From: an uncultured Alphaproteobacteria bacterium
GTDB lineage: Bacteria; Pseudomonadota; Alphaproteobacteria; Rs-D84
Direction of reading: 5' to 3'
Assembly: GCA_934272785.1 (NCBI GenBank)
Contig: CAKQSE010000004.1
Span: 10,634-74,633, forward strand
DNA: 64,000 nucleotides
Shown here: positions 20,337 to 45,063 of the stretch, in pieces
Position numbering within the stretch: the stretch's first letter is position 1
Layout of the letters: each line of letters opens with the position of its first letter
Notes under the pieces: model-generated
Databases searched by the model: none
The model's input: the letters and a program-made list of their open reading frames with translations, nothing else
What the model was told of the DNA's origin: nothing
Position numbers and translations under genes: made by a program

Positions 20337-21332
20337 TTAGGCCATTATTTCGTTCAGTAATGAATTCATATTCGCACGAATATCCTCGCGATCGGGGGCC
20401 CACACCAAGCGGCGCATTAAAAATTTATGTACATCGTCCATCGTCAGCGTCGGTATTCCCGCCGCCACCGCAACCGCACGCCACGCGCGACGCGGATCGG
20501 TCAAATGCCCACGGCCACGCCCCGGGAAAACCCAGCGACCATTTTGCGGCAAATCCTGTAACAGCACAACCGCCTGGTCTGACAATGGCATATCGTTCCA
20601 CATATAATGATTGAAATCCAGGTCACGCCACTGCATCGAAAACACGCGCGATTTTGGCGCAAACCCATACACCAACATTAAAAATGCGGCACGCAGACTA
20701 GCTGATTTTTCCGCGTTTATCGCGTCCATCAATCGATGAAACACAAATCTGTTCAGCGGTCGCACACGACGATTTTGCACAACCTTGGGCAAATCAGAAA
20801 TTATATTTTCCGCGTATCCGTTTTCGGCGGCATATGCGAACATGCTCTGTAATAATTCTTGCATGCGACCACGTATTGCGACGCCATCGATATTTGATAT
20901 CACGTGTTCACAATCCGCACGCGTAATGTCGGACATATTTTTATCGGTCAATTCCCCCAGATGGCGCGTTATCGCACGACGCAATTTTTCACGCGACGCC
21001 GGCACGCGACGCACGCGATTCGTCATATACAAATCAACAAATTTTGAAAATTTAATCTTGCGACGACGGGTCGGCACCGGTGCATCGGCACGCGCCAGAA
21101 TTTCAGACACGGCACTGCGCGCATCTTCGATATCCATATCTGGATACTTTCCGATGATAAAGCGGCGATCACGCCCGCGCACACGATGACGAACAAAGAA
21201 CGTCTTGACCCCACGGCTGGTCACATACATGCGCAAACGCGGTTCTGATAAATCCTGGACCACATCAAAACCCGCACTGGGGGCCGGCAGGTTGTCCAAT
21301 ATGAACGGATTAAAAAAGAACTGGTGCGCCAT
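20337..21332 (-). CDS. P4/DUF4102-type tyrosine recombinase homologue, probably catalytically degenerate or truncated
   Basis: The N-terminal arm-binding pattern (LRMYVTSRGVKTFFVRHRVRGRDRRFIIGKYPDMDIEDAR) and a core-binding region are recognisable. The first catalytic Arg box reads YGFAPKS rather than TG.R..E. The protein ends at 331 aa with no LxH...Y nucleophile segment. Confidence 0.6.
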   Translation of the reverse strand: MAHQFFFNPFILDNLPAPSAGFDVVQDLSEPRLRMYVTSRGVKTFFVRHRVRGRDRRFIIGKYPDMDIEDARSAVSEILARADAPVPTRRRKIKFSKFVDLYMTNRVRRVPASREKLRRAITRHLGELTDKNMSDITRADCEHVISNIDGVAIRGRMQELLQSMFAYAAENGYAENIISDLPKVVQNRRVRPLNRFVFHRLMDAINAEKSASLRAAFLMLVYGFAPKSRVFSMQWRDLDFNHYMWNDMPLSDQAVVLLQDLPQNGRWVFPGRGRGHLTDPRRAWRAVAVAAGIPTLTMDDVHKFLMRRLVWAPDREDIRANMNSLLNEIMA

Positions 21333-21356: not shown

Positions 21357-21773
21357 TTATTTTACATTTGCGTATTTCTGGGTCCAAAAGGTATCACGTT
21401 TTTTACGCCAAAAATCCAAAATTTTTTTCTGGTAAAAATAGCCCACGTTTTGACCATGATTTTTGCAACTGTCAAAATTGCAACAACCTTTTTTACTCAA
21501 GAAACAACAATCTTTGTGTCGTGTCAGTGGTGCAGAACGCAGTCCCATAATTGCCCCCGCCATTGGCGATTGATATGTGTATTCAACAATGCACGCCCAT
21601 GTGTTGTCGGCCGTTTCTTTGTCATCAACCACCGCAGTCATCGCATCGCGCGCATCTTTCAAATCTGCCACCGCGTCATCATAATGATTCAAGACCGCCT
21701 GGTAATCCAATCTGTCATGCGCACGCTGGGCCGCAGATGTCTTTAAATAATATTTCAACTTCTGTATCAACAT
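21357..21773 (-). CDS. Cys-rich family protein, paralogue 1 (unknown function)
   Basis: N-terminus MLIQKLKYYLKTSAAQRAHDR. Cys module CCFLSKKGCCNFDSCKNHGQNVGYFY...FW. The ATG lies 1 nt after the stop of the previous paralogue. Confidence 0.7.
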   Translation of the reverse strand: MLIQKLKYYLKTSAAQRAHDRLDYQAVLNHYDDAVADLKDARDAMTAVVDDKETADNTWACIVEYTYQSPMAGAIMGLRSAPLTRHKDCCFLSKKGCCNFDSCKNHGQNVGYFYQKKILDFWRKKRDTFWTQKYANVK

Positions 21774-21774
21774 T

Positions 21775-22167
21775 TTATCTTACCTTGCTGTATATATTTT
21801 CCCAAAATATTGCTTTTTTATTCAGTGCCAATTCGCACACAGTATACAATTGTGCGCATTCATTATTCGCGGCACGCAACGGGCAATCCTGCTGCTTACA
21901 CGGAACACCATGAATAAAGTGCGGGCATGTGTGTGTTGTTGTGTATTTAACACCTGGCACCTTTTCCAGAATCTTAAACTTTACACAACCCGATACGTCC
22001 GCCGGGTCTTCGTAATAATCCAAATCAACGCTAATCCGATTTAATGCACGGGCATATTTATTTTTTGCAACACCATATTTCATACACAGCGCGCGATATT
22101 CGCCCGCGTTCTGGCGTCTAACGCCTGCTGGCGTTTTCAGCCAATACTTTATTTTTTTAATGTTCAT
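21775..22167 (-). CDS. Cys-rich family protein, paralogue 2 (unknown function)
   Basis: N-terminus MNIKKIKYWLKTPAGVRRQN. Cys module CPHFIHGVPCKQQDCPL...FW. AAGGAT RBS. Confidence 0.7.
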   Translation of the reverse strand: MNIKKIKYWLKTPAGVRRQNAGEYRALCMKYGVAKNKYARALNRISVDLDYYEDPADVSGCVKFKILEKVPGVKYTTTHTCPHFIHGVPCKQQDCPLRAANNECAQLYTVCELALNKKAIFWENIYSKVR

Positions 22168-22179
22168 TTATTTAATCCT

Positions 22180-22614
22180 TTATTTGTTTTCAGCGCGCCC
22201 CATTGCACGTGCCAAAAACGCATCACGTGCGGCAACGGCGGCGTCATAGCGGTCCTTGGCCGCAAAATACGCGGTATTTTTTTCATAAAAGGCACAGTCC
22301 TTGCGCGGACATTTTTTGTCGCCTTCGGCAAAATACCGACAATTATTCTCCCTTACCAACATGGGTGTATATCTGCTCAGGTCATCTCCGCCCAACATAT
22401 TGTTCGGATACGTCAGATATACAACACACGCCTTTCTTAAAACTTCTGTTCGGGACAGTCCATCGGTCACGATACGCAACGCCTCGTGCGCCTGTTCCAT
22501 GTCACGCCCTGCTTCGAAACATTTCAATTCCAGGTCTTCCAACACGGCATTATTCTGCGCACGCTGGGCGGCACTGGTTGTCAAATAATATTTTATCTTG
22601 GCAAAAAAATTCAT
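22180..22614 (-). CDS. Cys-rich family protein, paralogue 3 (unknown function)
   Basis: ORF trimmed to ATG 22614 (GGGGGA RBS). N-terminus MNFFAKIKYYLTTSAAQRAQNN. Cys module CRYFAEGDKKCPRKDCAFYEKNTAYF. Confidence 0.7.
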   Translation of the reverse strand: MNFFAKIKYYLTTSAAQRAQNNAVLEDLELKCFEAGRDMEQAHEALRIVTDGLSRTEVLRKACVVYLTYPNNMLGGDDLSRYTPMLVRENNCRYFAEGDKKCPRKDCAFYEKNTAYFAAKDRYDAAVAARDAFLARAMGRAENK

Positions 22615-22630
22615 AATCGTCCCCCAATTG

Positions 22631-23386
22631 TTATTTTGTTTTTGTTGGCATCCAATCCTTGCCAGCAATCGCACGATATGCCGCACACGCCGCATTATAG
22701 CGGTTTAAAACATCGGCATAATGCGCATTTTTTTCGCGATATGGGCAATTGCGTTCGCATGGCGTCGCAAATTCTGTGCATTTTTCATTTAATGTAAAAC
22801 TGTGCGACGGACCATCAGAATCCAACACCGCCCAATCACCGGCCCCATAATACGCCGACACAAAGCAGCCCATTTTTACCAACGGCCCGCTGTTTGGATT
22901 GATACAAACATGTGTCGATATCGCAGATTTTGCCAACGTCAATTCATTTTCCAAATCGGCGCATTGCGCATTTAAATGTGCAATTTCTGTATTCCGTTCT
23001 TGCCGGGCACGCGCCGCCTGGGCAATACGCAACGCACAACGCTCTGGCCAGAATTCCTTTTCCTTGACCAGGGCCGTCCCATACGCACGAAACGCGTCAA
23101 AATATTTATGATTTTCACCCAGATACGGACATTCTTTATCCATGCACGGCCCCTGTATTTCTGGCTGGAACGCCGCGCAACGCGTATCCGTATTATCCAG
23201 CAAATCATCAAATATTCCGCGTGTCGCCCCAATATGCTCGCCACTGCATACCAGCGCATATTCCATATCCTTTACACGCGCCTCTTTTTCCTTGGCATCA
23301 TGGACCAACTGTTTAAAATCCGCCCTATCTTGCGCACGCTGTGTGGCATCCGTATTCAAATAATATTTAATTCTTTTCAACATCAT
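22631..23386 (-). CDS. Cys-rich family protein, paralogue 4 (two Cys modules)
   Basis: ORF trimmed to ATG 23386 (AAGGGGG RBS). N-terminus MMLKRIKYYLNTDATQRAQDR. Modules CAAFQPEIQGPCMDKECPYLGENHKYF and CTEFATPCERNCPYREKNAHYA, joined by a coiled linker LNAQCADLENEL. Confidence 0.72.
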   Translation of the reverse strand: MMLKRIKYYLNTDATQRAQDRADFKQLVHDAKEKEARVKDMEYALVCSGEHIGATRGIFDDLLDNTDTRCAAFQPEIQGPCMDKECPYLGENHKYFDAFRAYGTALVKEKEFWPERCALRIAQAARARQERNTEIAHLNAQCADLENELTLAKSAISTHVCINPNSGPLVKMGCFVSAYYGAGDWAVLDSDGPSHSFTLNEKCTEFATPCERNCPYREKNAHYADVLNRYNAACAAYRAIAGKDWMPTKTK

Positions 23387-23402
23387 TTTCGCCCCCTTGG
23401 AC

Positions 23403-24182
23403 TTAGCGTTCATTTAATGGTTTCCACTCGCGTTCTGTCATCAATCTGTATGCCTCGCACGCCTTTCTGTAACGCTCCTGAACATTGGCATAGTGTTGAT
23501 TTCGCGCATTGTAATAGCAATCGACGCGCGTGCACGGCACACGAAATTCTGGACAGTGGTCTATTCGTGACCATATCATTCCCGGGTAATCATCACTGGT
23601 GTCAAATGATTTAGAACTATACGACACATCCAAAAAACAACCTTTCTCACGTGGGGGTGTCCACTCTGGCGTAGCGAATTCATAACCGGTTATTGCCTGC
23701 CGGGCCTGTTCAAGTTCGCGATATAAATCCGCACACTGTGCGTCCAGGGTATCTATTGCTGTCTGGACCGCGGGACTGTTTGGATACTTGGCGGCCTCGA
23801 TACGTGATGCCTTTCTATCTTCCCAAAATGCTTTTACATATTCCTTGGCCTGGTCATATTCACGATACACATTGCGATACTTTACATATTCGGGATAATA
23901 CATACATGTTTTTTTCCAGCATCCACCATCACGGGAAAAAATCCAAAACCTCCTACAATGCTCATCTTCTATTTTGCCGGGCAGTATTTCGCCCCAAATC
24001 CCCGGGAAATTTTTCAAATAGCGATGAACACATCCACCGCGATGTGACAATTCGGTCTTGACCTCTTCCAGTTTTACGCGTTTTTTCTGCATATCATTCC
24101 ACAATGAGCGAAACGCCGCACGATCCGCCGCACGCATTTCTGCATCTGTTGCCAGGTAATATTTTATCGTTTTAAACAGCAT
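23403..24182 (-). CDS. Cys-rich family protein, paralogue 5 (two Cys modules)
   Basis: N-terminus MLFKTIKYYLATDAEMRAADR. Modules CRRFWIFSRDGGCWKKTCMYYPEYVKY and CPEFRVPCTRVDCYYNARNQHYA, with linker LDAQCADLYREL. GGGGGAT RBS. Confidence 0.72.
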   Translation of the reverse strand: MLFKTIKYYLATDAEMRAADRAAFRSLWNDMQKKRVKLEEVKTELSHRGGCVHRYLKNFPGIWGEILPGKIEDEHCRRFWIFSRDGGCWKKTCMYYPEYVKYRNVYREYDQAKEYVKAFWEDRKASRIEAAKYPNSPAVQTAIDTLDAQCADLYRELEQARQAITGYEFATPEWTPPREKGCFLDVSYSSKSFDTSDDYPGMIWSRIDHCPEFRVPCTRVDCYYNARNQHYANVQERYRKACEAYRLMTEREWKPLNER

Positions 24183-24211
24183 CTAAATCCCCCGTGTTTT
24201 AAACCCGATTT

Positions 24212-24559
24212 TTATTTTTGGTGTTTCTTGCCTGTTTTCCAGAAATCACGGCGCAATGCGGCATAGCATGCCATTTTTTGACGCGATTCATAATATTCCA
24301 TATTGTCGCCATACAGCGCACACTTGGAATTATCGCACGGTCTGTTATCCTTGTAGTGTTCGCAACGCTCTTTCATCCCAGACGCATCAAAACCAATACA
24401 ATGGCATTCCGGGGTGCCGCGCATCATATTTTTATATGCCAATTCCGCCCGTTGAATACTTTCTTGTTCTTTTTCCTTGATACGTTCATAGATATATTTA
24501 TCTGCGACGCGCGCGTCTTTGCTTGTTACCAGGTAATAGGTCAATTTATCAATCAGCAT
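24212..24559 (-). CDS. Cys-rich family protein, paralogue 6 (unknown function)
   Basis: N-terminus MLIDKLTYYLVTSKDARVADK. Module CEHYKDNRPCDNSKCALYGDNMEYY...FW. The ATG lies 20 nt after the lepA stop, with AAAGGAG in between. Confidence 0.7.
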   Translation of the reverse strand: MLIDKLTYYLVTSKDARVADKYIYERIKEKEQESIQRAELAYKNMMRGTPECHCIGFDASGMKERCEHYKDNRPCDNSKCALYGDNMEYYESRQKMACYAALRRDFWKTGKKHQK

Positions 24560-27910: not shown

Positions 27911-28790
27911 GTGATAGAGTGATTTAGTGATAGAGTGATAAAGTAAATTCCCCTCTGGAGAGCCGGGGTGTCGTCTATGTTAGAGAGCAGAGTGTAGAGA
28001 GCAGAGAGCAATGAAAGTGTCCGCCAATGGCGGACAACTCTAATGACCTGGATCCTGGGGACACCACCCACAAAATCTGACGATTTTGCGGGGCCCGGAC
28101 AAGCCACAGGATGACGAGGTCTGAGAATTTGTGTTTATTTTACGAACATAGTTCATTTTTATGTCGCGGACTTTCTCTTGGGGGTCGCCTGCGGACTGCG
28201 TCCTTGCCGCATCCTGCGCTTCGCTTGGATTCATTCTGGGGCTTGACCCCAGAATCCAGGTAAATAGACTTGCGCGTATGCGCACTGCTATCAGTTCCCC
28301 TCTGGCCAGAGGGGTGGTGCGCAGCACCGGGGTGTCGTTTTATTGATTGCCACGCTGCGCTCGCAATGACAAGGGGTGAGTGCCCTATGGCATGAAAATT
28401 CCCCTTCGCTGGCGAAGGGGTGGCCGCCCCAGGCGGCCGGGGTAGTGGTATTATCGGTCCCTGCGGGGCAAGGGATACCGGCCTGCGCCGGTATGACGAT
28501 ATTATGTAGGTATTGTCCCATATTATGAACATTGTTCGTATTTGGGTTATTGACCGTTTCTTATGCCGTCACCCCGACGAAGGTCGGGGTCCATTGTGTT
28601 CCCTTGGCACGTCACAATTTGGTAATTAGTCCCCATAAGAAAATCCGCGATTGCTCGGATATGGCTCGCTTTTGCTCGCACTGCATAGTCCCTATTCCTG
28701 CCTGCGCAGGAATGACAAGTTTTTAAGTTTTCTATTCTAAAACTATATCACTCTGTCACTTACTCACTTTATCGTTGCCCCCTGCACTCT
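27911..28790. repeat. about 0.9-kb mosaic of short palindromic repeat modules (BIME/MITE-like), non-coding
   Basis: A chain of GC-rich hairpins (CCGCCAATGGCGG, CCCCTCTGGCCAGAGGGG, CCCCTTCGCTGGCGAAGGGG, GGCCGCCCCAGGCGGCC, CCGGCCTGCGCCGG, CCCCGACGAAGGTCGGGG, CCTGCCTGCGCAGG). Individual 20-60-bp modules recur in either orientation at 40254-40533, 43286-43579 and 59480-59628. The two ends carry inverted GTGATAGAGTGAT / ATCACTCTGTCAC motifs. Confidence 0.85.
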
Positions 28791-28821
28791 AAAACAAGAA
28801 ACGCGCCGATGGCGCGTCCTT
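28790..28821 (-). terminator. Rho-independent terminator after the last fibre gene
   Basis: CGCGCC-GAT-GGCGCG (28802-28816), followed on the minus strand by TTTCTTGTTTT. Confidence 0.6.
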
Positions 28822-29700
28822 TTATTCAATCCAAATCGCGGCATACGTTGTCGCCGTTGATGATCCAACAGGAACCTGGACATTTCCCTTGGTCACCGTG
28901 ACCTTGCCGTCTGTCTGGGTAACATTTGTTACAACCGCACCCGTGCCTGTGGACGTGCTGTCCAAGGCGTCCAACTGAGCCTTGGTTGCGAACGTTGTTC
29001 CCTTGGTAACGGTGTATTTGCCATCCGCAACGGTTACAGCCGTAACCGCATTCCCAGTCCCGGTGGTTGTCACCGAAACCGGTGCGACATCACCAGTTGC
29101 CCCAGTTATCAATATTTTGTTTTTATTAGACTCACCCTGCGACTTGTCAACAGAATTATTCCCAGCCGCAATATTCGCAATATCCCACGCGGCGGCAACT
29201 GTCGGAACCTTGGCATCTTCGGTGGCTGACGTTTCATCAATCCCCGACGCCGATGTCATTATACGAACACCACCCTTTTCTGTGGCACTGGCATCCGGCA
29301 ATGAATATTTTGTATCTGTCCCAGTTATTGTCACAACACCATTTGCAATACCGACGCTGACACTGCCTGCGCCCTTTAAATTTGTTGTCGTCAACGTTGG
29401 CTGCTTACCACCCAATGCCGTTGTAATTGCGCCACGGGTCATTGTTCCGTCGGTGCTGGTGCCTGTCGAGGTATACAACTTTGTTGTTCCGGAATAAGCC
29501 TCGGTTCCGGTGGTATACGTTGTATTTGTATCTGTGGCATTGATAACAATCTTGCCACTGTTTGTGCCCGATGTTGGATTTTCAATCGTAACATTTGTGC
29601 CGGCAACAATGTTTGTCTTGGACACAATTTCCGCACGCGCACCGGTTACAACCAACATGGCAAAAATCGAAACGGTAAAGATACTTTTAACACATCTCAT
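28822..29700 (-). CDS. fibrous surface protein 1 (Thr/Ala/Gly-rich, phage-tail-fibre-like modules)
   Basis: Start set at ATG 29700, giving the signal peptide MRCVKSIFTVSIFAMLVVTGARA (the ORF track extends to 29754). Shares with the next gene the modules GVVTITGTDTKYSLPDAS..GGV and KVPTVAAAWDIANIA. C-terminus VQVPVGSSTATTYAAIWIE. Confidence 0.7.
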   Translation of the reverse strand: MRCVKSIFTVSIFAMLVVTGARAEIVSKTNIVAGTNVTIENPTSGTNSGKIVINATDTNTTYTTGTEAYSGTTKLYTSTGTSTDGTMTRGAITTALGGKQPTLTTTNLKGAGSVSVGIANGVVTITGTDTKYSLPDASATEKGGVRIMTSASGIDETSATEDAKVPTVAAAWDIANIAAGNNSVDKSQGESNKNKILITGATGDVAPVSVTTTGTGNAVTAVTVADGKYTVTKGTTFATKAQLDALDSTSTGTGAVVTNVTQTDGKVTVTKGNVQVPVGSSTATTYAAIWIE

Positions 29701-29818
29701 AACGCTACATTCTGTATATTTAATCTCTCTGATGTATAATACCAAATTCTTCACATTGTGACAAGTCTATTTCCATGGTGCGCACAGACAAATCCGCACG
29801 CACCACAGAAATCAGACA

Positions 29819-31261
29819 TTAACGACCAATTTTTTCCCATGTATATGTTGGAACACTGTTCACAACCTTCATCGTCAGCGTGTATGTTCCATCTGTGGAT
29901 GTTGCAGATTCTGCCGGTGCAACAAACTTTGCCGCCAATGCCGTATCCAGCCCAGTAATCTTGGACGTTGCCAACGCTGGGATATCAGCCGCAGTCAGGT
30001 CAGAACCACCAGTTACCAAACCTTTCGCATCATATGTAATTTTTGTTTTGGTACCACCTGTAATTGCGGTATTGGCCACAACCGCCGCACTCGCTGTCTT
30101 CTGGGCTGCATCTGCCGCTGATTTAGCATTGGCCGCCGCAGTAGCTGCATCAGTACCCGCTTTCTTCGCATCTGCAATGGCCGCATTCGCTACCTTGTTT
30201 TGAACAGGGTTCGTGCTGGTATCACTCATTGCTGTATCAACCATTACACCACCCAGAACTTTATCTGTCGCGGCTGGCAATGTGTATTTAGTGTCCGCCG
30301 AACTAATCGTAACGACGCCAGTCGTTGCATCACGCGAAACTGTGACATTTGTTCCGTTCTTGATTAAACCCGCCGGGATATCAGCCGCAGTCAGGTCAGA
30401 ACCACCAGTTACCAAACCTTTCGCATCATATGTAATTTTTGTTTTGGTACCACCTGTAATTGCGGTATTGGCCACAACCGCCGCACTCGCTGTCTTCTGG
30501 GCTGCATCTGCCGCTGATTTAGCATTGGCCGCCGCAGTAGCTGCATCAGTACCCGCTTTCTTCGCATCTGCAATGGCCGCATTCGCTACCTTGTTTTGAA
30601 CAGGGTTCGTGCTGGTATCACTCATTGCTGTATCAACCATTACACCACCCAGAACTTTATCTGTCGCGGCTGGCAATGTGTATTTAGTGTCCGCCGAACT
30701 AATCGTCACGACGCCAGTCGATGCATTACGTGAAACCGTAACGTTTGTTCCAGCAGTAATCAATCCATCCTTGACCTTTAACGGCGTAACCGAATCCGTC
30801 GCCAATTTAGCATCTGTAACGGCCGAGTCTGCGATTTTGGCCGTGGTTACTGCATTTGCACCTATTTTATCCGCCGTGACGGCACCATTGGCAATTTTCC
30901 CATTTGTCACCGCGCTGTTTGTAATCATACCCGTTGCGATTGTTCCAGTTGTAACCGTCCCAGACGCATTAGTAATCAATGCCTTGTTTGCACCAGCGGT
31001 TCCCTGTTCCTTTTCAACCGCATTATCACCCAATGCAACATTCGCAATGTTATAAGCCGCCGCAACAGTTGGATAGCTGGTGTCATCCTTCTCGCTAAGT
31101 TGTTCGGTCGATGTTTTTTTGTTCGCCTTCACTTCCATATCATTACGAATAGCGGCGTCCTTGGTATCGACATACGCGGTTGATGCGATGTCTGCGCGGG
31201 CCGCGGGCGCCATCATAATCGCAATCAATGAAACAGCCAACAATCCAGATAATTTTTTCAT
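29819..31261 (-). CDS. fibrous surface protein 2 (contains a 132-aa perfect tandem duplication)
   Basis: Signal peptide MKKLSGLLAVSLIAIMMAPAARA, then the DIASTAYVD neck motif. TKITYDAKGLVTGGSDLTAADIPA resembles the phage tail-fibre repeat. C-terminus GTYTLTMKVVNSVPTYTWEKIGR. Confidence 0.75.
   Translation of the reverse strand: MKKLSGLLAVSLIAIMMAPAARADIASTAYVDTKDAAIRNDMEVKANKKTSTEQLSEKDDTSYPTVAAAYNIANVALGDNAVEKEQGTAGANKALITNASGTVTTGTIATGMITNSAVTNGKIANGAVTADKIGANAVTTAKIADSAVTDAKLATDSVTPLKVKDGLITAGTNVTVSRNASTGVVTISSADTKYTLPAATDKVLGGVMVDTAMSDTSTNPVQNKVANAAIADAKKAGTDAATAAANAKSAADAAQKTASAAVVANTAITGGTKTKITYDAKGLVTGGSDLTAADIPAGLIKNGTNVTVSRDATTGVVTISSADTKYTLPAATDKVLGGVMVDTAMSDTSTNPVQNKVANAAIADAKKAGTDAATAAANAKSAADAAQKTASAAVVANTAITGGTKTKITYDAKGLVTGGSDLTAADIPALATSKITGLDTALAAKFVAPAESATSTDGTYTLTMKVVNSVPTYTWEKIGR
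29979..30770. repeat. in-frame 396-bp tandem duplication inside fibre gene 2
   Basis: 29979-30310 is identical base for base to 30375-30706 (332 bp). The last roughly 64 bp of each unit diverge. The 396-bp period equals 132 codons. Confidence 0.95.
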
Positions 31262-31349
31262 AACCCTAAAACCTTTTTATTTTTTTATTTAACCACAATC
31301 CCTGAACCTGTGTCGGGGCATTCCCCGCCCCCGACACAGCATTTTTTAT

Positions 31350-32543
31350 TTATTCACCTGTCGATTCACTTGCGTCACGTTCAACGCTTTCCCAAGCATA
31401 ACCATTATTTCCAACAGTCAACACGCATTTTGCACCCAATGTTGTGCATGCGTCAGTTGGTGCAGGAATAGCTTTGTCAGCAACTGCTTTCGCCGCGGCC
31501 GCGTCTGTTACACCCTGGTCTGCCTTGGTCTGAGCCGCTGTAATTTTCGCATCATAACCATCATATGTGGTTACTTTTGTCGCCGTGATGCCAGAATTTA
31601 CCGCGCTCAACTGCGCTTCTGTCAAAGCGTCTTGTTTCTTTGCGATATCTTCGGTATTTTTAGTGATATTTTCTGTATTGGTGGCAATTGCATCAATCCT
31701 TTCTTTGGTAACACCTGTGCCTTCCAATGTCGTTACACGACCAGCCAGACCAGAATCATCATATTCATACGTTGCGCTGATGGTGCCATCTTCGGCAATT
31801 GTGATGTTTGAACCTTGTTTCAAGGTATTCTGTTTTTTCGCTAATTCTTCATTAACATATGTCGTAGATGCCTTGGTCGCCAAACCTGTTGTAGCATTAT
31901 TCACAGCGGCGGCTGTATCATCTGCAGTTTTTCCCTGGGCAGTGGTTGCATAATTACCAGCCAAGCCGTCTGCATATGTTTTTGCATTTTGCTCGGCAGT
32001 GGCGGCCGCACCCTTGGCATCATATGCAGCGTCAGCACGTGCTGTTTCCGTTGTAATTGCATCTGCAATGGATTTTGCAATAGAACCATCACCATCACCA
32101 GTCAATGTCCCCAATGTTGTGGTGTGACCCGCAACTGTTGTTTGCAAATTGCCTAATTCTTCTGATGTGGCAACACTTGCTGTGGAGTATTTAATTTTGC
32201 CATCGTCACCAACTGTCACGGCGGTCACAACGTTTCCTGTGCCATCTTTTACAAAGTCAGCAGCGGTCAATGTATTCTGCTTCTTGCCCAATTCTGCGGT
32301 TACTGTTTCAGAATCTGCCTTTTTGGCGATCGCATCTGTATTTGCTGTAACTTTTTCAGACAACACTGTAACAGTTGAAGCATCTGCCTTGGTTCCGACA
32401 GTTGTTGTCAAATCAGCAATCGCATCAGCGTTCACTTTCACCTTTGCATCAACGTATTTCTGTGATGTCAGGGCTGCGTCAGCAGAGTTTGCCGCGACAA
32501 CGCCCAACAATACTGTAAATATACCAGCGGTTAATTTTTTCAT
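31350..32543 (-). CDS. fibrous surface protein 3
   Basis: Signal peptide MKKLTAGIFTVLLGVVAANSADA. Motifs include SQKYVDAK, YVNEELAKKQNTL and KKQDALTEAQLSAVNSGITATKVTTYDGYDAKI. C-terminal knob IPAPTDACTTLGAKCVLTVGNNGYAWESV. Confidence 0.75.
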   Translation of the reverse strand: MKKLTAGIFTVLLGVVAANSADAALTSQKYVDAKVKVNADAIADLTTTVGTKADASTVTVLSEKVTANTDAIAKKADSETVTAELGKKQNTLTAADFVKDGTGNVVTAVTVGDDGKIKYSTASVATSEELGNLQTTVAGHTTTLGTLTGDGDGSIAKSIADAITTETARADAAYDAKGAAATAEQNAKTYADGLAGNYATTAQGKTADDTAAAVNNATTGLATKASTTYVNEELAKKQNTLKQGSNITIAEDGTISATYEYDDSGLAGRVTTLEGTGVTKERIDAIATNTENITKNTEDIAKKQDALTEAQLSAVNSGITATKVTTYDGYDAKITAAQTKADQGVTDAAAAKAVADKAIPAPTDACTTLGAKCVLTVGNNGYAWESVERDASESTGE

Positions 32544-32599
32544 TTTTCTTTCCTTTCTTTTTTGTTTTTTATTTTTTGTTTAAATCTTGGTTGGTGTGC

Positions 32600-33805
32600 T
32601 TATTCTTCTCCCAATGGGGCAGTTACATCCATCCACATCATATTTTTGGACGCCGCGTCCACAGACAGAACGCAACGACCGGATTCGGCGGCACATGAGC
32701 CCTCTGGCTTTGGAATAGTTGTGTCAAATTTGTCATCAACCGCTTTTTTATCATAGACGTCATCGGCGTTTGCCTTTTTCGCCAATTCTGTGTTCACTGT
32801 TGCCGCGTCAGCCTTGGCATCCAACGCATCTTTGATGTCACCCGTTGTCAACGCGTTCGTAATTGCACCAGTTACGTCAGCCATTGATGTAAAGTCTGTC
32901 AGCTTTTTATCAGAAACCTGATACTGGCCATTGGCATCAACTGTCGCGATATTGCCGGCGTTTGCCGCATCAACCGTCAACTTGTTTGCTTTGGTCGCCA
33001 TACCTTCTTGGTATGTTGTTTCTTTTACATAGCCTTTCAAATCAACGTCACCCGCCTGGATATCACCAATTAATGTATTCACCTGTGCCTTGGTATATGT
33101 ATCAACTTTGCGGTATACATCATTATTGATTTCATTGATTGCGCCAACGATTGTTTTTGCATCGGTGGTTAAATCACCCTCGCCAACCTTGGTGTTGATG
33201 TTGGAAATGTTTGTTTCATTTGTCGAAACACGACCAGTCAACGCGGTTAAATCCGTCTTGTTCTGATCCGCTGTGGCCTGGGCGGCTGATGCAGCCGTTG
33301 CAGCATTACCGGCCTTGGTATCCGCAGCAGCAGCGGCGGCGGCGGCGTCAGCGGCAGCCTGGGTCGCGTCAGCGACACCCTTGGTCAAACCAGATTCTGC
33401 ATCACCGATTGCCGTTTTATTTGCATTGGCAGTGGTCTGGGCCGCATCGGCTGCTTCCTTGGCCGCGTTTGCAGTATTTTCGACACCTGTTACAGCGTCT
33501 TTCTTGGCATACGTTGTTTCAGCATCCGCAGATTTCAAGTAACCATCCAAGTCAGCTGCGTCCGCCTTGCCATCAATCGTGGTGGTCAAATTGGTAACAT
33601 TTTGTTGTAATTCGTTCACCGTGGTTTTATCGGCCTTGCCTTCGACTGTTGTGGTCAAATTAGTAATCTTTTCTGTGGTCGTCTTGTCAATATTATCAAC
33701 ATACTGACGGCTGGCGATTTCAATCTTGGCATTTGCCGCCGTGGCACCCGCCGACAACATTATCGCCGCCATAAAACCAGAAAAAGCTATGTTTTTTACT
33801 TTCAT
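32600..33805 (-). CDS. fibrous surface protein 4 (long Ala-rich coiled segment)
   Basis: Signal peptide MKVKNIAFSGFMAAIMLSAGATAANA, SRQYVDN motif, repeated TTV.GKAD heptad-like units. C-terminal knob IPKPEGSCAAESGRCVLSVDAASKNMMWMDV parallels that of fibre 3. Confidence 0.75.
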   Translation of the reverse strand: MKVKNIAFSGFMAAIMLSAGATAANAKIEIASRQYVDNIDKTTTEKITNLTTTVEGKADKTTVNELQQNVTNLTTTIDGKADAADLDGYLKSADAETTYAKKDAVTGVENTANAAKEAADAAQTTANANKTAIGDAESGLTKGVADATQAAADAAAAAAAADTKAGNAATAASAAQATADQNKTDLTALTGRVSTNETNISNINTKVGEGDLTTDAKTIVGAINEINNDVYRKVDTYTKAQVNTLIGDIQAGDVDLKGYVKETTYQEGMATKANKLTVDAANAGNIATVDANGQYQVSDKKLTDFTSMADVTGAITNALTTGDIKDALDAKADAATVNTELAKKANADDVYDKKAVDDKFDTTIPKPEGSCAAESGRCVLSVDAASKNMMWMDVTAPLGEE

Positions 33806-33880
33806 TTTTCGTTCCTTTCTGTCCTTTCATTTTGCCCCGTTCCCCGTTATGGCGGAAGATTGAAGCCAAATTCCCCTTAC

Positions 33881-35944
33881 CTATTCTGCGATGCTGACCG
33901 CGGTCCATTGCTGTGCACTGCCATCATACAGAAACATTCCGTCGCCATCCGGCGCAGACAATTTTGCCGCAGCCGTCTTTTTCGCCTCGCCCGCGTCGGC
34001 CAATGCCGCGCTCGCAGTTGTCTTGGCCGCGCCAGCGTCAGTCTGGGCCGTGTTCGCCGCCGAAACAGCATCGGCAATCGACGCACCGTAGCCATCGTAT
34101 TTCGTGACCAATGTCGCCGTAATACCAGAATCCACCGCCGCGATTTGTTCGGCGTTTAATTTATCCTGTTTGCCCGCAACCGCATCATTGACATATGTTT
34201 CCGTCGCGTATCCCTTTAAAGTAATTTCACCACTCAGCGCGGCGTCAGCAATTGCCTTTTGCACGCCAGATGAACGGACCAGTTTATTCGAACCCGCCGT
34301 CGGCACATCGTCAATCGCGTCGGCACTGATGTTGTCCAGGCCAACCGTCGCACGGTTATATGTCACCGTCTGGGTCGCAGCATCATATGTAATGCCATTT
34401 ACAACACCATTGACATCACCGGTTCCGGTAACCGCAACCATACCCGCGGGACCAGTGTCACCCTTGTCACCTTTCTCGCCAGCGGGACCCTGGGGACCTT
34501 GTTCACCCTGGGGACCAGCGGGACCAGTATCGCCTTTTTCACCCTTTTCACCGGCAGGCCCCTGGGGACCTTGCTCGCCCTGGGGACCTTGTTCACCCTG
34601 GGGACCAGCGGGACCGGTATCACCCTTCTCGCCCTTTTCACCGGCGGGACCCTGAATACCTTGCTCGCCCTGGGGACCTTGTTCACCCTGGGGACCAGCG
34701 GGACCAGTATCACCCTTCTCGCCCTTTTCACCGGCGGGACCCTGAATACCTTGCTCGCCCTGGGGTCCTTGCTCGCCCGGGTCACCTTTGTCACCCTTTT
34801 CGCCAGGATCACCCTTGTCGCCCTTGGCACCGGCAGGAATCGCATCTAATTTTGCATCAATCTCGCTCTTGGCATAGACGTCAGAACTGTTCGCCTTGTT
34901 CGCCAGGCCGGCATTTAATGCCGCAATATCAGATTTATTTGTTTCAATTTGACCAACCGCAGTCGATGTAATGCCAGAATTTGTCGCCGCAATTTGCGCA
35001 TCGGACAATTTATCCTGTTTCTTTGCCAATTCGCTGTCAACATATGTCTGGGACGCCAGACCACTGATTGCGGTCGCAATCGCAGAATTCATCGCCGCCT
35101 TGGCACCGGCCACCTGGTCATCAACATATGTGATTTTTGCATATGGCGTCAGGTCAACATCCGCACCATCGCCCTTTGGTCCCTGGGGACCCATCGGCCC
35201 TTCGGGTCCACGTGGCCCCTCGGGTCCCATTGGACCCTGGGGTCCTTCGGGTCCGCGGTCACCCGGCGCACCCATAATTTCTGATTTAGAAATCAAATTC
35301 TGCCACGCGGTATCACCATCGTATTTCCATAACAGGTCTGTTTCATTGGAACCAATTACAACCTCGCGTCCGTCCTGGCCCGCGATTGTGCCAATCGCAT
35401 CCTTGACCCGGTCAATATCAACCGTGATTTCGTTTGTCCGATCATCAATCGAAACAAAACCATCAGACGCCGGCGTCAATGTGTCCTGTTTTCTGTCAAT
35501 TTTATCACCCAACGCAATATCGGCATTTTTCAGGTTTTCGATATCACGACGAATTGCACTGGCCTCGCCAGGTGTAACGCCAGAACCACCAGACGACGTA
35601 TCACCCGTCGGGCGTTTAATCGAACTGCCCCCGCTGACGGATGTGCCACCATTTAAATATTTACCAATCGACAAACGTGAACCCGTGGCAACACGACCAT
35701 TGGTCGTTGTCGCAGACGAATTTGTCGAACCAGTTGATGATTTATCGGACGTCGGCGTAACACGCAGTGAGCCACCACGAACACCAGACGCAGAACCGTT
35801 ACCATTGCCAGACGCAGCAGCCGCACTGTTGTATGTTCCAGCCCCCCCCAGGCTGCGCACAGATGATGCCGCGTTGGCCACAGAAGTCGCCGCACACAGC
35901 ACACACACGATTGCCCACGTTGATATTTTCAAGTCTTTTTTCAT
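33881..35944 (-). CDS. collagen-like fibrous surface protein 5
   Basis: 687 aa with signal peptide MKKDLKISTWAIVCVLCAATSVANA. Two GXY blocks (residues about 225-260 and 372-501). The YVD/KKQDKL/NSGIT modules are shared with fibre 3. C-terminus LSAPDGDGMFLYDGSAQQWTAVSIAE. Confidence 0.8.
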   Translation of the reverse strand: MKKDLKISTWAIVCVLCAATSVANAASSVRSLGGAGTYNSAAAASGNGNGSASGVRGGSLRVTPTSDKSSTGSTNSSATTTNGRVATGSRLSIGKYLNGGTSVSGGSSIKRPTGDTSSGGSGVTPGEASAIRRDIENLKNADIALGDKIDRKQDTLTPASDGFVSIDDRTNEITVDIDRVKDAIGTIAGQDGREVVIGSNETDLLWKYDGDTAWQNLISKSEIMGAPGDRGPEGPQGPMGPEGPRGPEGPMGPQGPKGDGADVDLTPYAKITYVDDQVAGAKAAMNSAIATAISGLASQTYVDSELAKKQDKLSDAQIAATNSGITSTAVGQIETNKSDIAALNAGLANKANSSDVYAKSEIDAKLDAIPAGAKGDKGDPGEKGDKGDPGEQGPQGEQGIQGPAGEKGEKGDTGPAGPQGEQGPQGEQGIQGPAGEKGEKGDTGPAGPQGEQGPQGEQGPQGPAGEKGEKGDTGPAGPQGEQGPQGPAGEKGDKGDTGPAGMVAVTGTGDVNGVVNGITYDAATQTVTYNRATVGLDNISADAIDDVPTAGSNKLVRSSGVQKAIADAALSGEITLKGYATETYVNDAVAGKQDKLNAEQIAAVDSGITATLVTKYDGYGASIADAVSAANTAQTDAGAAKTTASAALADAGEAKKTAAAKLSAPDGDGMFLYDGSAQQWTAVSIAE
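34442..34831. repeat. collagen GXY-coding repeat block with 90-bp internal periodicity
   Basis: About 43 consecutive Gly-X-Y triplets (GEKGEKGDTGPAGPQGEQGPQGEQGIQGPA units). GTTCACCCTGGGGACCAGCGGGACC recurs at 34501, 34591 and 34681. A second, shorter GXY block lies at 35165-35272. Confidence 0.9.
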
Positions 35945-36006
35945 AACTCTCTCTACTGATACCTAGTTTATCATATTTTGCGAATCGGGGTCAACACCTT
36001 TCTATG

Positions 36007-36723
36007 TTAAAATTCATATCTGATACCAACAGAAATTGAATTATCCAATATCGTGTCGATTTTATTTTCAAACCAGTGATTGGTTTCGTCGGTTGTTTGG
36101 AAATCAAATTTCTGCTTCGTGCCAGTCATACCCGCCAAGCGATAGCGAACATCCAAAACCAGGTTATCATCCAATTTCTGGGTATAGCCCAACATCAACG
36201 CCGCCATCGGCGCGACAGATGTTTTTTTGCGGTCACTGCCGTCAAAGAATACGGAATCAATCGTTGTTGTCGGCATCGCCAGTCCCAGACCACCGCCAAC
36301 ATACAGGCCGCTGGTGAAATCATAATAACCACTGGCCATCAAATACGGGATTGACATTGTGAATTCGGCCGCGCTGTCTTTGTCGCTGAAATATCCGATA
36401 TAGCCGGCCTCTACCTCGCCCCGCCAGAAGTAACCAAAGTGATAACCACCGGCCAGACTGCCGCCAAAGACAGGTTCAAACGAATAATCGTCCGAAGCGT
36501 AATCATTATTCGCCGCAAAATTATCATCAGACGAATATTTATTCTTCCAATTTAAAAAACTAACCTCGGCACGGCCGGTGATATACCACCCCGTCTTGGC
36601 CTTGTCTGTATAGTTATATGTAACATTATATCCGCCATTTGAATCAGGACGCACATAGCTGGGGGCCGCAGACGCCGCCGTTGTCACGCCCAACGCAACA
36701 AATAAAGTGAACAATTTTTTCAT
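36007..36723 (-). CDS. small outer-membrane beta-barrel protein (OmpA-beta-barrel/Opa-like)
   Basis: ATG at 36723 with an AGGAGG RBS. Signal peptide MKKLFTLFVALGVTTAASA, Gly/Tyr-rich alternating strands, C-terminus SVGIRYEF. It sits first in the same-strand run with the five fibre genes. Confidence 0.72.
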   Translation of the reverse strand: MKKLFTLFVALGVTTAASAAPSYVRPDSNGGYNVTYNYTDKAKTGWYITGRAEVSFLNWKNKYSSDDNFAANNDYASDDYSFEPVFGGSLAGGYHFGYFWRGEVEAGYIGYFSDKDSAAEFTMSIPYLMASGYYDFTSGLYVGGGLGLAMPTTTIDSVFFDGSDRKKTSVAPMAALMLGYTQKLDDNLVLDVRYRLAGMTGTKQKFDFQTTDETNHWFENKIDTILDNSISVGIRYEF

Positions 36724-43960: not shown

Positions 43961-44118
43961 GCTGCACCCTTTACGGTTTTTAATCTGCGCTCTCTGTCCT
44001 GCCCCCGATTCGTAATCTTATTGTTGCACAAAATCGCCCGTTGTCAAGTTTTGTTGTAAAATTTCCACGGGCACCCCAGTCACAAATATGGTATAATCAC
44101 CGCAAAAGGAATAGCACC

Positions 44119-45063
44119 ATGAAATATTATGAATTTGGTTTAACAAATACTCGGGCAATATTTGCCGACGCAATTCGTCGCCACTATGCGGTGCCGGCAT
44201 TTAATTTCTATAATATGGAAACATTACAGGCAATTTTATCCGCCGCCCGCGACGCGCACAGCCCGGTCATACTGGCCGTGTCGGAATCCGCACTGAAATA
44301 CATGGGTGGCGATTTGCTGATGGGTATGATACGCGGCGCAAATATCCGCCCGACCGAACGCATAACACTGCACCTGGATCACGGGGCCAGTTTTGACGCA
44401 TGCCGCACGGCACTGGAATTGGGATTTTCATCCGTCATGATTGACGCCAGCAAATTGCCATTTAACGAAAACGTGGAACTGTCGCGTCGCGTTGCCGAAT
44501 TGGCCCACCAATATGATGCCTCGGTCGAGGCGGAATTAGGCACCATATCCGGAATCGAAGATGAAAATACATTTTCCGACCATTCCAGTTATACCGACCC
44601 CAACGATGTAATAAAATTTGTGAACGCAACTGGGATTGATTCACTGGCCATCGCCATCGGGACCAGCCACGGCGCATACAAACGCAAAAACGAAAACGAG
44701 AAACTGCGCCTGGACATATTGGACGAAATCGCCAAACAATTGCCTGAATTTCCACTGGTCTTGCACGGCGCAAGCAGTATTCCACAACACTTTGTCAAAA
44801 CCATAAATGAATTTGGTGGGGCACTGCCCGGGGCATTGGGGATTGACCCGCAACAACTGCGCGCGGCGACCGAAATGAATATTTGCAAAATAAACGTGGA
44901 CAGCGATTCCCGCCTGGCATTCACCGCGGGCGTTCGCGCAACACTGGGCCAACACCCCGAAATGTTTAACCCACGCGATTTCCTGAAATCCGCCCGCCAA
45001 AACATCTATGACAACTGCATAGATGAAATCAAACACATCATGGGATCGGATAACAAATTATAA
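44119..45063 (+). CDS. fba: class II fructose-1,6-bisphosphate aldolase
   Basis: ORF trimmed to ATG 44119. Motifs YAVPAFNFYNMETLQAIL, LHLDHG and LVLHGASSI. Confidence 0.88.
   Translation: MKYYEFGLTNTRAIFADAIRRHYAVPAFNFYNMETLQAILSAARDAHSPVILAVSESALKYMGGDLLMGMIRGANIRPTERITLHLDHGASFDACRTALELGFSSVMIDASKLPFNENVELSRRVAELAHQYDASVEAELGTISGIEDENTFSDHSSYTDPNDVIKFVNATGIDSLAIAIGTSHGAYKRKNENEKLRLDILDEIAKQLPEFPLVLHGASSIPQHFVKTINEFGGALPGALGIDPQQLRAATEMNICKINVDSDSRLAFTAGVRATLGQHPEMFNPRDFLKSARQNIYDNCIDEIKHIMGSDNKL

Follow-up and report, generated by a model that had tools for sequence, protein, structure and literature searches.

Vomp and BadA of Bartonella are modular trimeric fibres of Alphaproteobacteria; their export depends on Sec, they carry neck-like motifs of the YVD type, and their tandem paralogues recombine. 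The described system that works most like the one reported here is the MAT (mosaic adhesive trimer) family of the predatory bacterium Bdellovibrio bacteriovorus, in which 21 scattered genes encode proteins of ~600 to 1,100 or more amino acids (aa). These proteins have in common one beta-rich N-terminal domain of ~130 aa, and their C-terminal tips vary, with or without an S74 chaperone-protease (PMC10769870). Here, we describe a locus composed of one gene for a small outer-membrane protein (OMP) and five genes for fibre proteins, found at positions 28822 to 36723 of a 64,000-nucleotide (nt) stretch of contig CAKQSE010000004.1 from an uncultured alphaproteobacterium. The whole stretch is called the window below. 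Small-genome Proteobacteria of the gut and rumen have been described (PMC6785717), and members of the order Rs-D84/Ca. Enterousia have genomes smaller than 1 Mb and are predicted to live in dependence on partners (PMC12306168). Metagenomes of humans (including Hadza), ruminants, and other animals commonly contain such small-genome Alphaproteobacteria, and dependence on other cells is predicted for related lineages (PMC12306168, PMC6785717). We found no description of the locus in the literature on Rs-D84/Enterousia, on the metagenome-assembled genomes (MAGs) of the clade, or on tail-fibre-like adhesins.

The locus is a genuine clade-wide fibre locus of unusual design: the ends of the fibres are conserved and the shafts between them recombine, which reverses the pattern of phage and MAT fibres, where the tip is the variable part. 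The preliminary description of the window had proposed five consecutive fibre genes on the minus strand behind a small OMP gene, and we recovered all six open reading frames (ORFs). The OMP gene heads the run and is followed by the fibre genes from F5 to F1:

36007-36723, minus strand: OMP gene, 238 aa
33881-35944, minus strand: fibre 5 (F5), 687 aa
32600-33805, minus strand: fibre 4 (F4), 401 aa
31350-32543, minus strand: fibre 3 (F3), 397 aa
29819-31261, minus strand: fibre 2 (F2), 480 aa
28822-29700, minus strand: fibre 1 (F1), 292 aa, with an orthologue-based start at 29700

The ORF of F1 is open to a GTG at 29754 and that of the OMP gene to 36804. Their starts were set from the orthologues, which begin with MRCVK, MKLVK, or MKYIK for F1 and with MKKLF for the OMP.

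A core locus of a gut and rumen clade

The window lies near the replication origin and consists of housekeeping DNA. One side of the locus is occupied by ribosomal protein genes, lepA, rbfA, a GNAT gene, and a DedA/VTT gene, and the other by pal, ftsE, ftsX, DUF218, plsC, and tolB, with an AsmA-like gene also among the neighbours; dnaN, gyrB, dnaA, uvrC, dnaJ, and dprA are found further out. We read 17 related loci (L001 to L010, L012 to L015, and L096 to L099, minus duplicates). In all of them (17/17), four or five fibre genes were located between pal-ftsEX-DUF218-plsC and dedA-rbfA-lepA, and the OMP gene headed the run wherever the contig extended that far. The OMP was conserved down to 56% identity in these loci, and the proteins of the neighbouring housekeeping genes were 75 to 98% identical. 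Most loci carried five fibre genes, and two (L014 and L015) carried four (1,146, 622, 514, and 377 aa, the longest being 1,146 to 1,150 aa). Every fibre or OMP homologue that was looked up fell at the same site, with one locus per genome as far as sampled.

When the species genomes of GTDB were scanned with an F2 alignment, eight loci were found. They came from MAGs named "uncultured Rickettsiales bacterium" (UMGS1304, UMGS1180, and UMGS860), from "Alphaproteobacteria bacterium UBA6376," from Alphaproteobacteria of the Hadza gut, and from a Pseudomonadota MAG. The contigs bearing homologues measured 0.82 to 0.95 Mb and are apparently near-complete genomes, one example with the locus being ENA ERZ15609802 NODE_2 (946,946 bp); the genomes of the clade, from gut and rumen, have ~0.9 Mb. 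The fibre genes and their OMP gene are a core chromosomal locus of this uncultured clade of Alphaproteobacteria. The chromosomal repertoire proposed at the outset was thus found at the same site in all the related loci. The 64-kb window was free of genes for capsid, tail, baseplate, terminase, or lysis functions, which, together with the housekeeping context and the constant site, agrees with the earlier statement that there are no phage structural genes nearby and that the locus is not a prophage.

One related locus (L005; CAVGNU010000018.1) lies in a contig of 16.9 kb deposited under "Bacteroides fragilis isolate H07647-L1_cleanbin_000047." This contig bears the alphaproteobacterial locus with its flanks and was probably mis-binned in that assembly.

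Export signals and conserved ends of the fibres

All six products showed an n-region with a net charge of +2, a hydrophobic core of 12 residues (mean Kyte-Doolittle value of 2.1 to 2.8), and a small-x-small site. Reading the cleavage sites by the -3/-1 rule gave ARA↓E, ARA↓D, ADA↓A, ANA↓K, and ANA↓A for F1 to F5 and ASA↓A for the OMP, i.e., predicted cleavage after residues 23, 23, 23, 26, and 25 and after residue 19, respectively. Despite substitutions, the orthologues retain small residues at -3 and -1 (ANA, AHG, AYG, and AFG). By this rule, all five fibres carry the classical Sec signal peptides that had been ascribed to them, with n-, h-, and c-regions in 5/5.

The fibres are rich in A, T, G, K, D, and V (A, 11 to 21%; T, 8 to 21%). 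The five motifs quoted in the preliminary description were all recovered by regular expression in the proteins named. The pattern [ST]xxYV[DN] occurred 6 times, compared with 0.1 expected (2,000 shuffles; maximum, 3). The KKQ..SGIT module was present in F3 and in F5, which also carries a second, relaxed copy; GVVTI[ST]..DTKY[ST]LP occurred once in F1 and twice in F2, [YV]PTVAAA.. is common to F1 and F2, and TKITYDAKGLVTGGSDLTAADIP is present twice in F2.

The arrangement of these elements follows a similar plan in the different slots, i.e., the gene positions 1 to 5 of the run. F1 has a signal peptide (residues 1 to 23), a conserved Thr/Gly-rich N-terminal region of ~95 aa, the modules GVVTITGTDTKYSLP and VPTVAAAWDIANIA, and the C-terminal VQVPVGSSTATTYAAIWIE. 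In F2, the signal peptide (residues 1 to 23) is followed by the tag DIASTAYVD, a YPTVAAAYNIANVA module, and xAVTxxKI repeats; its second part comprises two copies of a block with GVVTISSADTKYTLP and TKITYDAKGLVTGGSDLTAADIP, and the protein finishes with DGTYTLTMKV...TYTWEKIGR. F3 is composed of a signal peptide (residues 1 to 23), the tag ALTSQKYVD, a KKQDALTEAQLSAVNSGITATKV module, and the C-terminal IPAPTDACTTLGAKCVLTVGNNGYAWESVER. F4 starts with a signal peptide of 26 residues and the tag KIEIASRQYVD and continues with a shaft rich in Ala, Thr, Asp, and Lys up to its C-terminal IPKPEGSCAAESGRCVLSVD...MMWMDVTAP, which has two Cys. None of F1 to F4 is covered by a Pfam or NCBIfam family, F1 being without any match to either. 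The F4 family has 308 clusters and no Pfam domain, and its nearly invariant parts are the signal peptide, A-S-x-x-Y-V-D, and P.P...C......CVLSV.......W..VT.P.

The mature N-termini of slots 2 to 4 carry x-I-A-S-x-x-Y-V-D within their first 9 to 12 residues, as does slot 1 of the distant lineage of L014 and L015. The C-termini of all slots follow one loose pattern: P.P, 5 to 10 residues, G/C, Y/C-V-L, 5 to 12 residues, and Y-x-W-x-x-I/V. A Cys-x6-Cys pair is present in addition in F3 and F4, and such paired Cys would be consistent with a location beyond the cytoplasm, in an oxidising compartment. The last residues of the proteins are ...IWIE, ...EKIGR, ...STGE, ...PLGEE, and ...SIAE. Isolated C-termini gave no Pfam match at E ≤ 10.

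The preliminary description had raised the possibility that C-terminal knobs are swapped between strains. The reverse was found, since the last ~25 to 30 aa are conserved within each slot and the middles vary. Slot by slot across the relatives, column identity was 0.61 to 0.87 in the first 35 aa, 0.21 to 0.40 in the middles, and 0.32 to 0.70 in the last 25 aa (0.43 to 0.70 for F1 to F4 and 0.32 for F5), compared with 0.74 to 0.88 for the OMP, Pal, and DedA. The lengths varied as well, from 200 to 349 aa in F1, 344 to 540 aa in F2, 259 to 409 aa in F3, 329 to 416 aa in F4, and 615 to 698 aa in F5.

Replacement of shafts by recombination

The locus L003 belongs to essentially the same species as the window. 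In DNA alignments of the two, the flanking genes were 94 to 97% identical and the intergenic spacers 68 to 97% (F2-F1, 93%; F3-F2, 95%; OMP-F5, 97%). The first 120 nt of the fibre genes were 80 to 96% identical, and the fibre middles 58 to 77%. Such a stepwise drop of identity inside near-identical DNA means that the middles were replaced by recombination and did not diverge by faster point substitution. The window also carries a gene for DprA (DNA-processing protein A; 62212-63237), compatible with uptake-driven homologous recombination as a source of fibre alleles.

Exchange is apparent between slots too. Within each of five genomes (L003, L005, L006, L009, and L010), F1 and F2 have in common 83 to 111 aa at 89 to 95% identity, and between genomes this segment is ~73% identical, which indicates gene conversion between the neighbouring slots. 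L007 encodes a 204-aa protein (10001-10615 of that locus) with the N-terminus of slot 2 and the C-terminus of slot 1; given the gene conversion between F1 and F2, this chimera may be explained as an unequal crossover, provided that it is not an assembly artefact. The KQ.xL..Q..A.NSGIT module, found in slots 3 and 5 of the window, occurs in slot 2 elsewhere. Modules thus change slot and genome, in line with the shuffling suggested for them from the window alone. Within the window itself there was no sign of recent gene conversion, the modules shared by paralogues being only 60 to 79% identical in DNA.

A recent event of another kind was found in F2:

29975-30751, minus strand: recent tandem duplication in F2, 2 x 396 bp, residues 170-297 and 302-429

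The two copies are 97% identical overall (Tandem Repeats Finder), with 300 nt at 100%, and the duplicated protein segments (128 aa x 2) differ at 3 of 128 positions.

Collagen repeats and N-terminal domain of F5

F5 had orthologues in all the loci read. After its signal peptide (residues 1 to 25), it has a conserved N-terminal domain up to residue ~215, two collagen blocks, KKQDxL..SGIT modules, and the C-terminal LSAPDGDGMFLYDGSAQQWTAVSIAE:

35300-35869, minus strand: F5 N-terminal domain, residues 26-215, ~190 aa
35165-35272, minus strand: F5 collagen block 1, 12 G-X-Y triplets, residues 225-260
34436-34831, minus strand: F5 collagen block 2, ~43 G-X-Y triplets, residues 372-503, with 90-bp tandem repeats

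Of the profiles suggested for the fibres at the outset, that of Collagen in Pfam was matched by F5 (E = 1.9e-26), the only fibre with uninterrupted G-X-Y triplets of triple-helix length. With these repeats, F5 is necessarily a trimer of the collagen type. By itself, the collagen block of F5 would measure ~40 nm. Slot 5 proteins of relatives with an OMP identity of 56 to 57% had no recorded Pfam Collagen match. In the consensus of 76 sequences, the N-terminal domain is marked by SVRSLGGAGTY, RGGSLRVTP, and RLSIGKYLGGG, and by L.W.Y.GD..W..LI just before collagen block 1. The last of these is related to the C-terminal motif of the fibres, and its position directly ahead of the first collagen block would suit an element that registers the trimer. 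An exhaustive phmmer search with the domain retrieved 280 representatives (50%-identity clusters) in proteins of 151 to 1,213 aa, nearly all matching from residue ~1.

Partial kinship with phage fibres

F2 matched PHROG tail-fibre families (E ~3e-8), and tblastn aligned its residues ~43 to 215 with tail fibres of cyanopodoviruses and roseophages at 36 to 52% identity (E down to 1e-6). Its TKITYDAKGLVTGGSDLTAADIP unit was found in four copies, ~85% identical, in P0083, a protein of 708 aa without signal peptide. P0083 matches phrog_7389 "tail fiber" (E = 3e-26) and adjoins a 2,061-aa tail protein (phrog_17472, E = 9e-105) on a 172-kb contig. The same unit is present in at least 405 stretches of IMG/VR viral contigs, at 48 to 89% identity. 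The TKITYDAKGLVT...DIP unit, which had been likened to a phage tail-fibre repeat and was recovered both in P0083/phrog_7389 and in these viral stretches, is, to judge from the sequences, a genuine phage tail-fibre repeat.

None of the five fibres was listed for Phage_fiber_2 (PF03406) at E ≤ 1, one of the profiles proposed for them, and the sole phage matches in Pfam were Phage_head_fibr in F2 (E = 3.8e-4; 20.4 bits for a cut-off of 24.6) and PTR in F4 (E = 0.038). F3 had a single phage match, of 48 aa at 58% identity, and the phage-family matches of F5 ran through its collagen repeats only. F1, F4, and the N-terminal domain of F5 had no match among 50,697 GenBank phage records. The kinship with phage fibres is genuine but partial: the phage-tail-fibre-like modules that the preliminary description saw in all five fibres stand for F2, marginally for the 48-aa module of F3, and, driven by collagen, for F5, and, as far as GenBank phages go, fall away for F1, F4, and the N-terminal domain of F5.

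The AlphaFold monomer of F2, built with 80 homologues, showed helices alternating with beta-hairpins and a C-terminal three-strand meander (residues 452 to 477), at low confidence. Sequence searches with F2 against the PDB returned nothing at E ≤ 1, and of the locus genes, F2 and the OMP were scanned with the PADLOC models, without a match.

The contig that bears P0083 (L011; ENA ERZ27270767 k115_2932783, 172 kb) is phage-like, with proteins of 2,916, 1,314, and 2,061 aa without Pfam match around P0083. It is probably that of a large gut phage.

The outer-membrane protein

The OMP scored 20.5 bits against the OMP_b-brl family of Pfam (gathering score, 28.7) and had a weak NCBIfam match to Rickettsia Adr (E = 1.9e-4; 21 bits for a cut-off of 210). 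Its homologues form 264 clusters of 53 to 100% identity, many of them with PF13505 or PF01389 and annotated as "porin family protein." The AlphaFold model (predicted local distance difference test [pLDDT], 84; predicted template modelling score [pTM], 0.75) showed ~10 DSSP strands, and its best Foldseek matches were the transmembrane domain of OmpA, OprG, Ail, OmpX, NspA, and OpcA (E of 1e-8 to 5e-7). A signal peptide, an antiparallel barrel, and a C-terminal aromatic beta-signal (...GIRYEF) are all present. On the model, the protein is a small outer-membrane beta-barrel of the OmpA/OmpX/OpcA-like type. Of the 8-strand-type OMP announced earlier, the small barrel is upheld by the fold matches, with 8 or 10 strands. 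The OMP is too small to be a secretion or translocation pore, and only its position, constantly adjacent to the fibres, links it functionally to them.

Its mature N-terminus is extended by 27 residues, APSYVRPDSNGGYNVTYNYTDKAKTGWY (residues 20 to 46; 36586-36666). Many of them, among Tyr, Lys, and Gly, are invariant over 58 homologues, yet the model gives the extension no structure (pLDDT ~50). The extension may serve for docking.

Putative architecture and function of the fibres

Taken together, we lean towards the reading that the locus encodes four or five Sec-exported, homotrimeric surface fibrils that are anchored by their N-termini and whose shafts recombine. Each fibre would start with a cleavable signal peptide, and its conserved slot-specific N-terminus (the x-I-A-S-x-x-Y-V-D tag, or the ~190-aa domain in slot 5) may hold it at the cell envelope. 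The shaft is made of interchangeable modules, namely, phage-tail-fibre-type beta-hairpin repeats, Ala-rich helical segments, and the collagen triple helix of F5. At the distal end, a C-terminal beta-meander of ~30 aa with an invariant Trp, and with the Cys-x6-Cys loop in F3 and F4, may set the register of the trimer or form a cap; F1 to F4 would then be trimers as well. Foldon-type and collagen-flanking domains are trimerisation domains, and by analogy with them the C-terminal element may register or nucleate the trimer. Between strains, shaft DNA is replaced by homologous recombination anchored in the gene ends and spacers, which are conserved; gene conversion reshuffles it across neighbouring slots, and tandem duplication lengthens the shafts. 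The fibres would pass the outer membrane and could dock on the neighbouring OMP. Related lineages of similar genome size are predicted to depend on partners (PMC12306168), and the bacterium itself is probably partner-dependent. The function of the fibres would most likely be contact, possibly adhesive, with the surface of a partner cell or host, and the diversity of the shafts may be driven by immune, phage, or partner specificity. Because ~8 kb of a ~0.9-Mb genome are spent on the locus, and because it is kept in every genome examined and diversified by recombination, it is the most obvious candidate for a contact or antigenic surface.

Several observations weigh against this account. The F2 monomer model is poor (pLDDT, 60; pTM, 0.22), and a Foldseek search of the PDB with this model gave nothing below E = 6.9, so that no fibre fold was confirmed. 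A profile of 21 C-termini produced only chance matches against the PDB (best E, 0.11). A look-alike phage N-terminal motif (...AP.NPVAGQHYFNT..EYVYDGTKWVDA) was compared with the fibre C-termini and rejected (hhalign probability, 0.7%). No outer-membrane secretion route was seen within the 64-kb window, in which the OMP is a small barrel. The conserved distal end is unlike that of receptor-binding fibres, in which the tip varies, and would weaken a reading of the fibres as specific adhesins. Lastly, some of the chimeras and duplications could be artefacts of metagenome assembly.

A more specific account, to which we give a low probability, holds that the fibres are phage-derived receptor-binding proteins, re-targeted by added signal peptides, that form the host-recognition apparatus of an obligately partner-dependent bacterium. 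They would attach to specific partner bacteria, protists, or the host mucosa, and strain-specific recombination of the shafts would set the range of partners. On this improbable account, the apparatus would be an independent, minimal-genome counterpart of the Bdellovibrio MAT, possibly docked on the OMP through the shared I-A-S-x-x-Y-V-D tag.

The combination of variable shafts and two conserved ends would also be expected from a variable protective coat, that is, a dense, antigenically variable fuzz, comparable to exosporium hairs or to a substitute for an S-layer, which would shield outer-membrane receptors from phages, IgA, and predators. Length and antigenicity would count in such a coat, and specific binding would not, a proposal that strikes us as rather improbable. 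The wide range of lengths (F2, 344 to 540 aa; F1, 200 to 349 aa; F5 family, 151 to 1,213 aa), a collagen segment coded by repeats able to expand and contract, and the lack of a recognisable binding domain in the Pfam and NCBIfam scans would suit it. However, five separately conserved slots exceed the apparent need of a simple coat, and the modules are those of the fibres with which phages recognise receptors. The present data fit a coat and an adhesin alike.

The fibres could also be structural elements of the periplasm or of the whole envelope, tethering or spacing its layers (the OMP or the outer membrane and the peptidoglycan or the inner membrane, for example) without ever crossing the outer membrane. 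Such a role would agree with the lack of a secretion system at the locus, with neighbours such as pal, tolB, ftsEX, the AsmA-like gene, and the OMP gene, and with the conservation of both termini, as if each docked to a fixed partner. We nevertheless regard it as distinctly unlikely: a two- to three-fold variation in length between strains is ill-suited to the fixed width of the periplasm, and it is exposed antigens that are typically replaced by recombination in strains otherwise nearly identical. Moreover, the fibres from which collagen and phage-fibre modules are known so far are exposed ones.

Less probable still is that the five products make up one composite fibre, joined end to end or on a common base like gp34 to gp37 in the long tail fibre of T4, with the conserved termini as joints. 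A fixed gene order and slot-specific, conserved termini around shafts that are free to vary would be compatible with it. Against this, single slots can be missing or fused while the others persist (four genes in L014 and L015; the F2/F1 chimera of L007), and slots 2 to 4 have one N-terminal tag in common, which points to a shared docking site and not to distinct joints.

Finally, a remnant of a prophage, tailocin, or gene-transfer agent with fibres assembled in the cytoplasm, suggested by the PHROG tail-fibre matches of F2, by the repeat it has in common with phage tail fibres, and by a protein with an Arm DNA-binding domain 7.5 kb away, is hardly credible in view of the Sec signal peptides on 5/5 fibres, the lack of capsid, tail, baseplate, terminase, and lysis genes in the 64 kb, the same site throughout the clade, and an Arm-domain gene that is itself conserved and syntenic (76 to 94% identity) and has no catalytic-domain match.

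Spacers and neighbouring DNA

The spacers of the locus and its downstream end showed the following features:

35945-36006, minus strand: OMP-F5 spacer, 62 nt, with a promoter-like pair TTGACC-18-TAAACT at 35994-35965
31262-31349, minus strand: F3-F2 spacer, 88 nt, with a G+C-rich hairpin without U-tract (-23 kcal/mol for the whole spacer)
29701-29818, minus strand: F2-F1 spacer, 118 nt, with a long perfect hairpin without U-tract (-40 kcal/mol for the whole spacer)
28799-28819, minus strand: terminator-like hairpin 3 nt past the F1 stop codon, with a 9-bp stem, 6 G-C pairs, and a T-rich tail

No terminator-like hairpin was found in the 62 nt between the OMP gene and F5, as had been noted before. 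Co-transcription of the two is not established, because this spacer holds a promoter-like pair and because such pairs are no commoner in the region than in shuffled sequences (12 matches observed, 13.1 expected). Of the promoter-like matches in the region, the best (TTGTCA-17-TATTAT, 29764-29736) follows the hairpin of the F2-F1 spacer, ahead of F1. The 82-nt stretch with the terminator-like hairpin downstream of F1 has a folding energy of -19.7 kcal/mol.

Between dedA and the end of F1 lies a non-coding gap of ~900 nt (27911-28821) crowded with G+C-rich hairpins, several of which have the shape GTCAT-stem-GCAG-stem. Across relatives, this gap ranges from ~170 to 1,010 nt, and only the 90 nt closest to dedA align with L003. 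It was considered as an RNA gene and discarded, no Rfam match being found at E ≤ 1. The GTCAT-N5-GCGCAG pattern had 4 matches in the window, compared with 1.2 expected, and was judged not to be enriched. An inverted repeat around the cluster (28791-28814 and 36202-36225; 24 nt, 79% complementary) was dismissed as a chance match or one to the terminator hairpin.

Farther away, positions 21357-24559 of the minus strand, with 20337-21332, hold an array of six genes from one paralogous family (115, 259, 260, ~144, 130, and 138 aa). Its members have the N-terminus M...K(I/L)KYYL.T....RA.DR..Y, a Cys-rich centre, and the C-terminus FW..KY..K, and the two long ones are two-domain fusions. The family had no Pfam, NCBIfam, or PADLOC match. 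Relatives carry ~3 to 9 copies, always between lepA and the conserved 331-aa protein whose sole match is the Arm DNA-binding domain (PF13356, E = 1e-7). Positions 44041-45063 encode a class II fructose-bisphosphate aldolase (E = 2.6e-90). Genome size and habitat make it plausible that the window belongs to the order Rs-D84/Ca. Enterousia, but Rs-D84 genomes are reported to lack this enzyme (PMC12306168), which points either to a difference between the clade and Rs-D84 or to a gene missed in the published annotation.

Relation to described fibre systems

By eye, the foldon of T4 fibritin looks like the C-terminal pattern P.P...G.Y(V/L)L....G..W..(I/V), but neither the profile search of the PDB nor hhalign gave a significant match. 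Homology with the foldon was discarded (hhalign probability, 0.7%), and the likeness is kept as a functional analogy.

The trimeric-autotransporter anchor was among the profiles proposed at the outset, and no fibre matched YadA_anchor (PF03895) at E ≤ 1. The fibres also lack an extended signal peptide region, and their C-terminal element is of ~30 aa and ~3 strands, without a terminal aromatic residue. Because there is no YadA anchor, the fibres are not trimeric autotransporters.

F5 resembles collagen-like proteins such as Lcl of Legionella, Scl1 and Scl2 of Streptococcus, and BclA of Bacillus in its long G-X-Y tracts, in repeats of variable length, and in its non-collagen flanks. It differs from them by having no LPXTG motif, Lcl C-terminal domain, or C1q-like domain. 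Its NCBIfam matches in the collagen part stayed below the cut-offs (adhesin_Lcl, 123 bits for 500; SclB, 103 for 325; a third, 87 for 400). F5 can be classed as a bacterial collagen-like protein by its repeats only.

Phage fibres of the phrog_7389 type, with their N.AIT.GT.TKITYDAKGLVT.G.DL..ADIP repeat, are 37 to 39% identical to F2 overall. The repeat unit is ~85% identical, and the GGV..D module and helical spacers are common to both. In contrast, phage fibres of the P0083 type have no signal peptide, start with MKFYNNIDLLKNEIQNF..., carry other C-terminal domains, and are set in tail modules.

The comparison with MAT was made by its published description, not by sequence. Both are chromosomal families with signal peptides, mosaic modules like those of phage tail fibres, and a conserved cell-proximal N-terminus, and F5, with a conserved N-terminal domain and a variable remainder, comes nearest in layout. 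They differ in that here four or five genes occupy one fixed locus, slots 2 to 4 have only a 9-aa tag, and the N-terminal regions of F1 and F5 are conserved but mutually unrelated, so that there is no common domain of ~130 aa. No fibre matched Peptidase_S74 at E ≤ 1, and here the C-termini are conserved and the shafts variable, whereas the tips vary in MAT. The likeness to the mosaic fibres of predatory bacteria put forward in the preliminary description thus extends to signal peptides and mosaic modules and stops short of the ~130-aa N-terminal domain and of variable or S74 tips. The fibres are not members of the MAT family, and yet the locus works most like MAT. If, as in the reading we prefer, its products are exported fibrils exposed at the cell surface, they could serve as handles for enrichment and imaging with antibodies or labelled recombinant fibres and as markers for strain typing. 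They would then be a second, independent example, after the MAT of Bdellovibrio, of bacteria re-using phage fibre modules as exported fibres.

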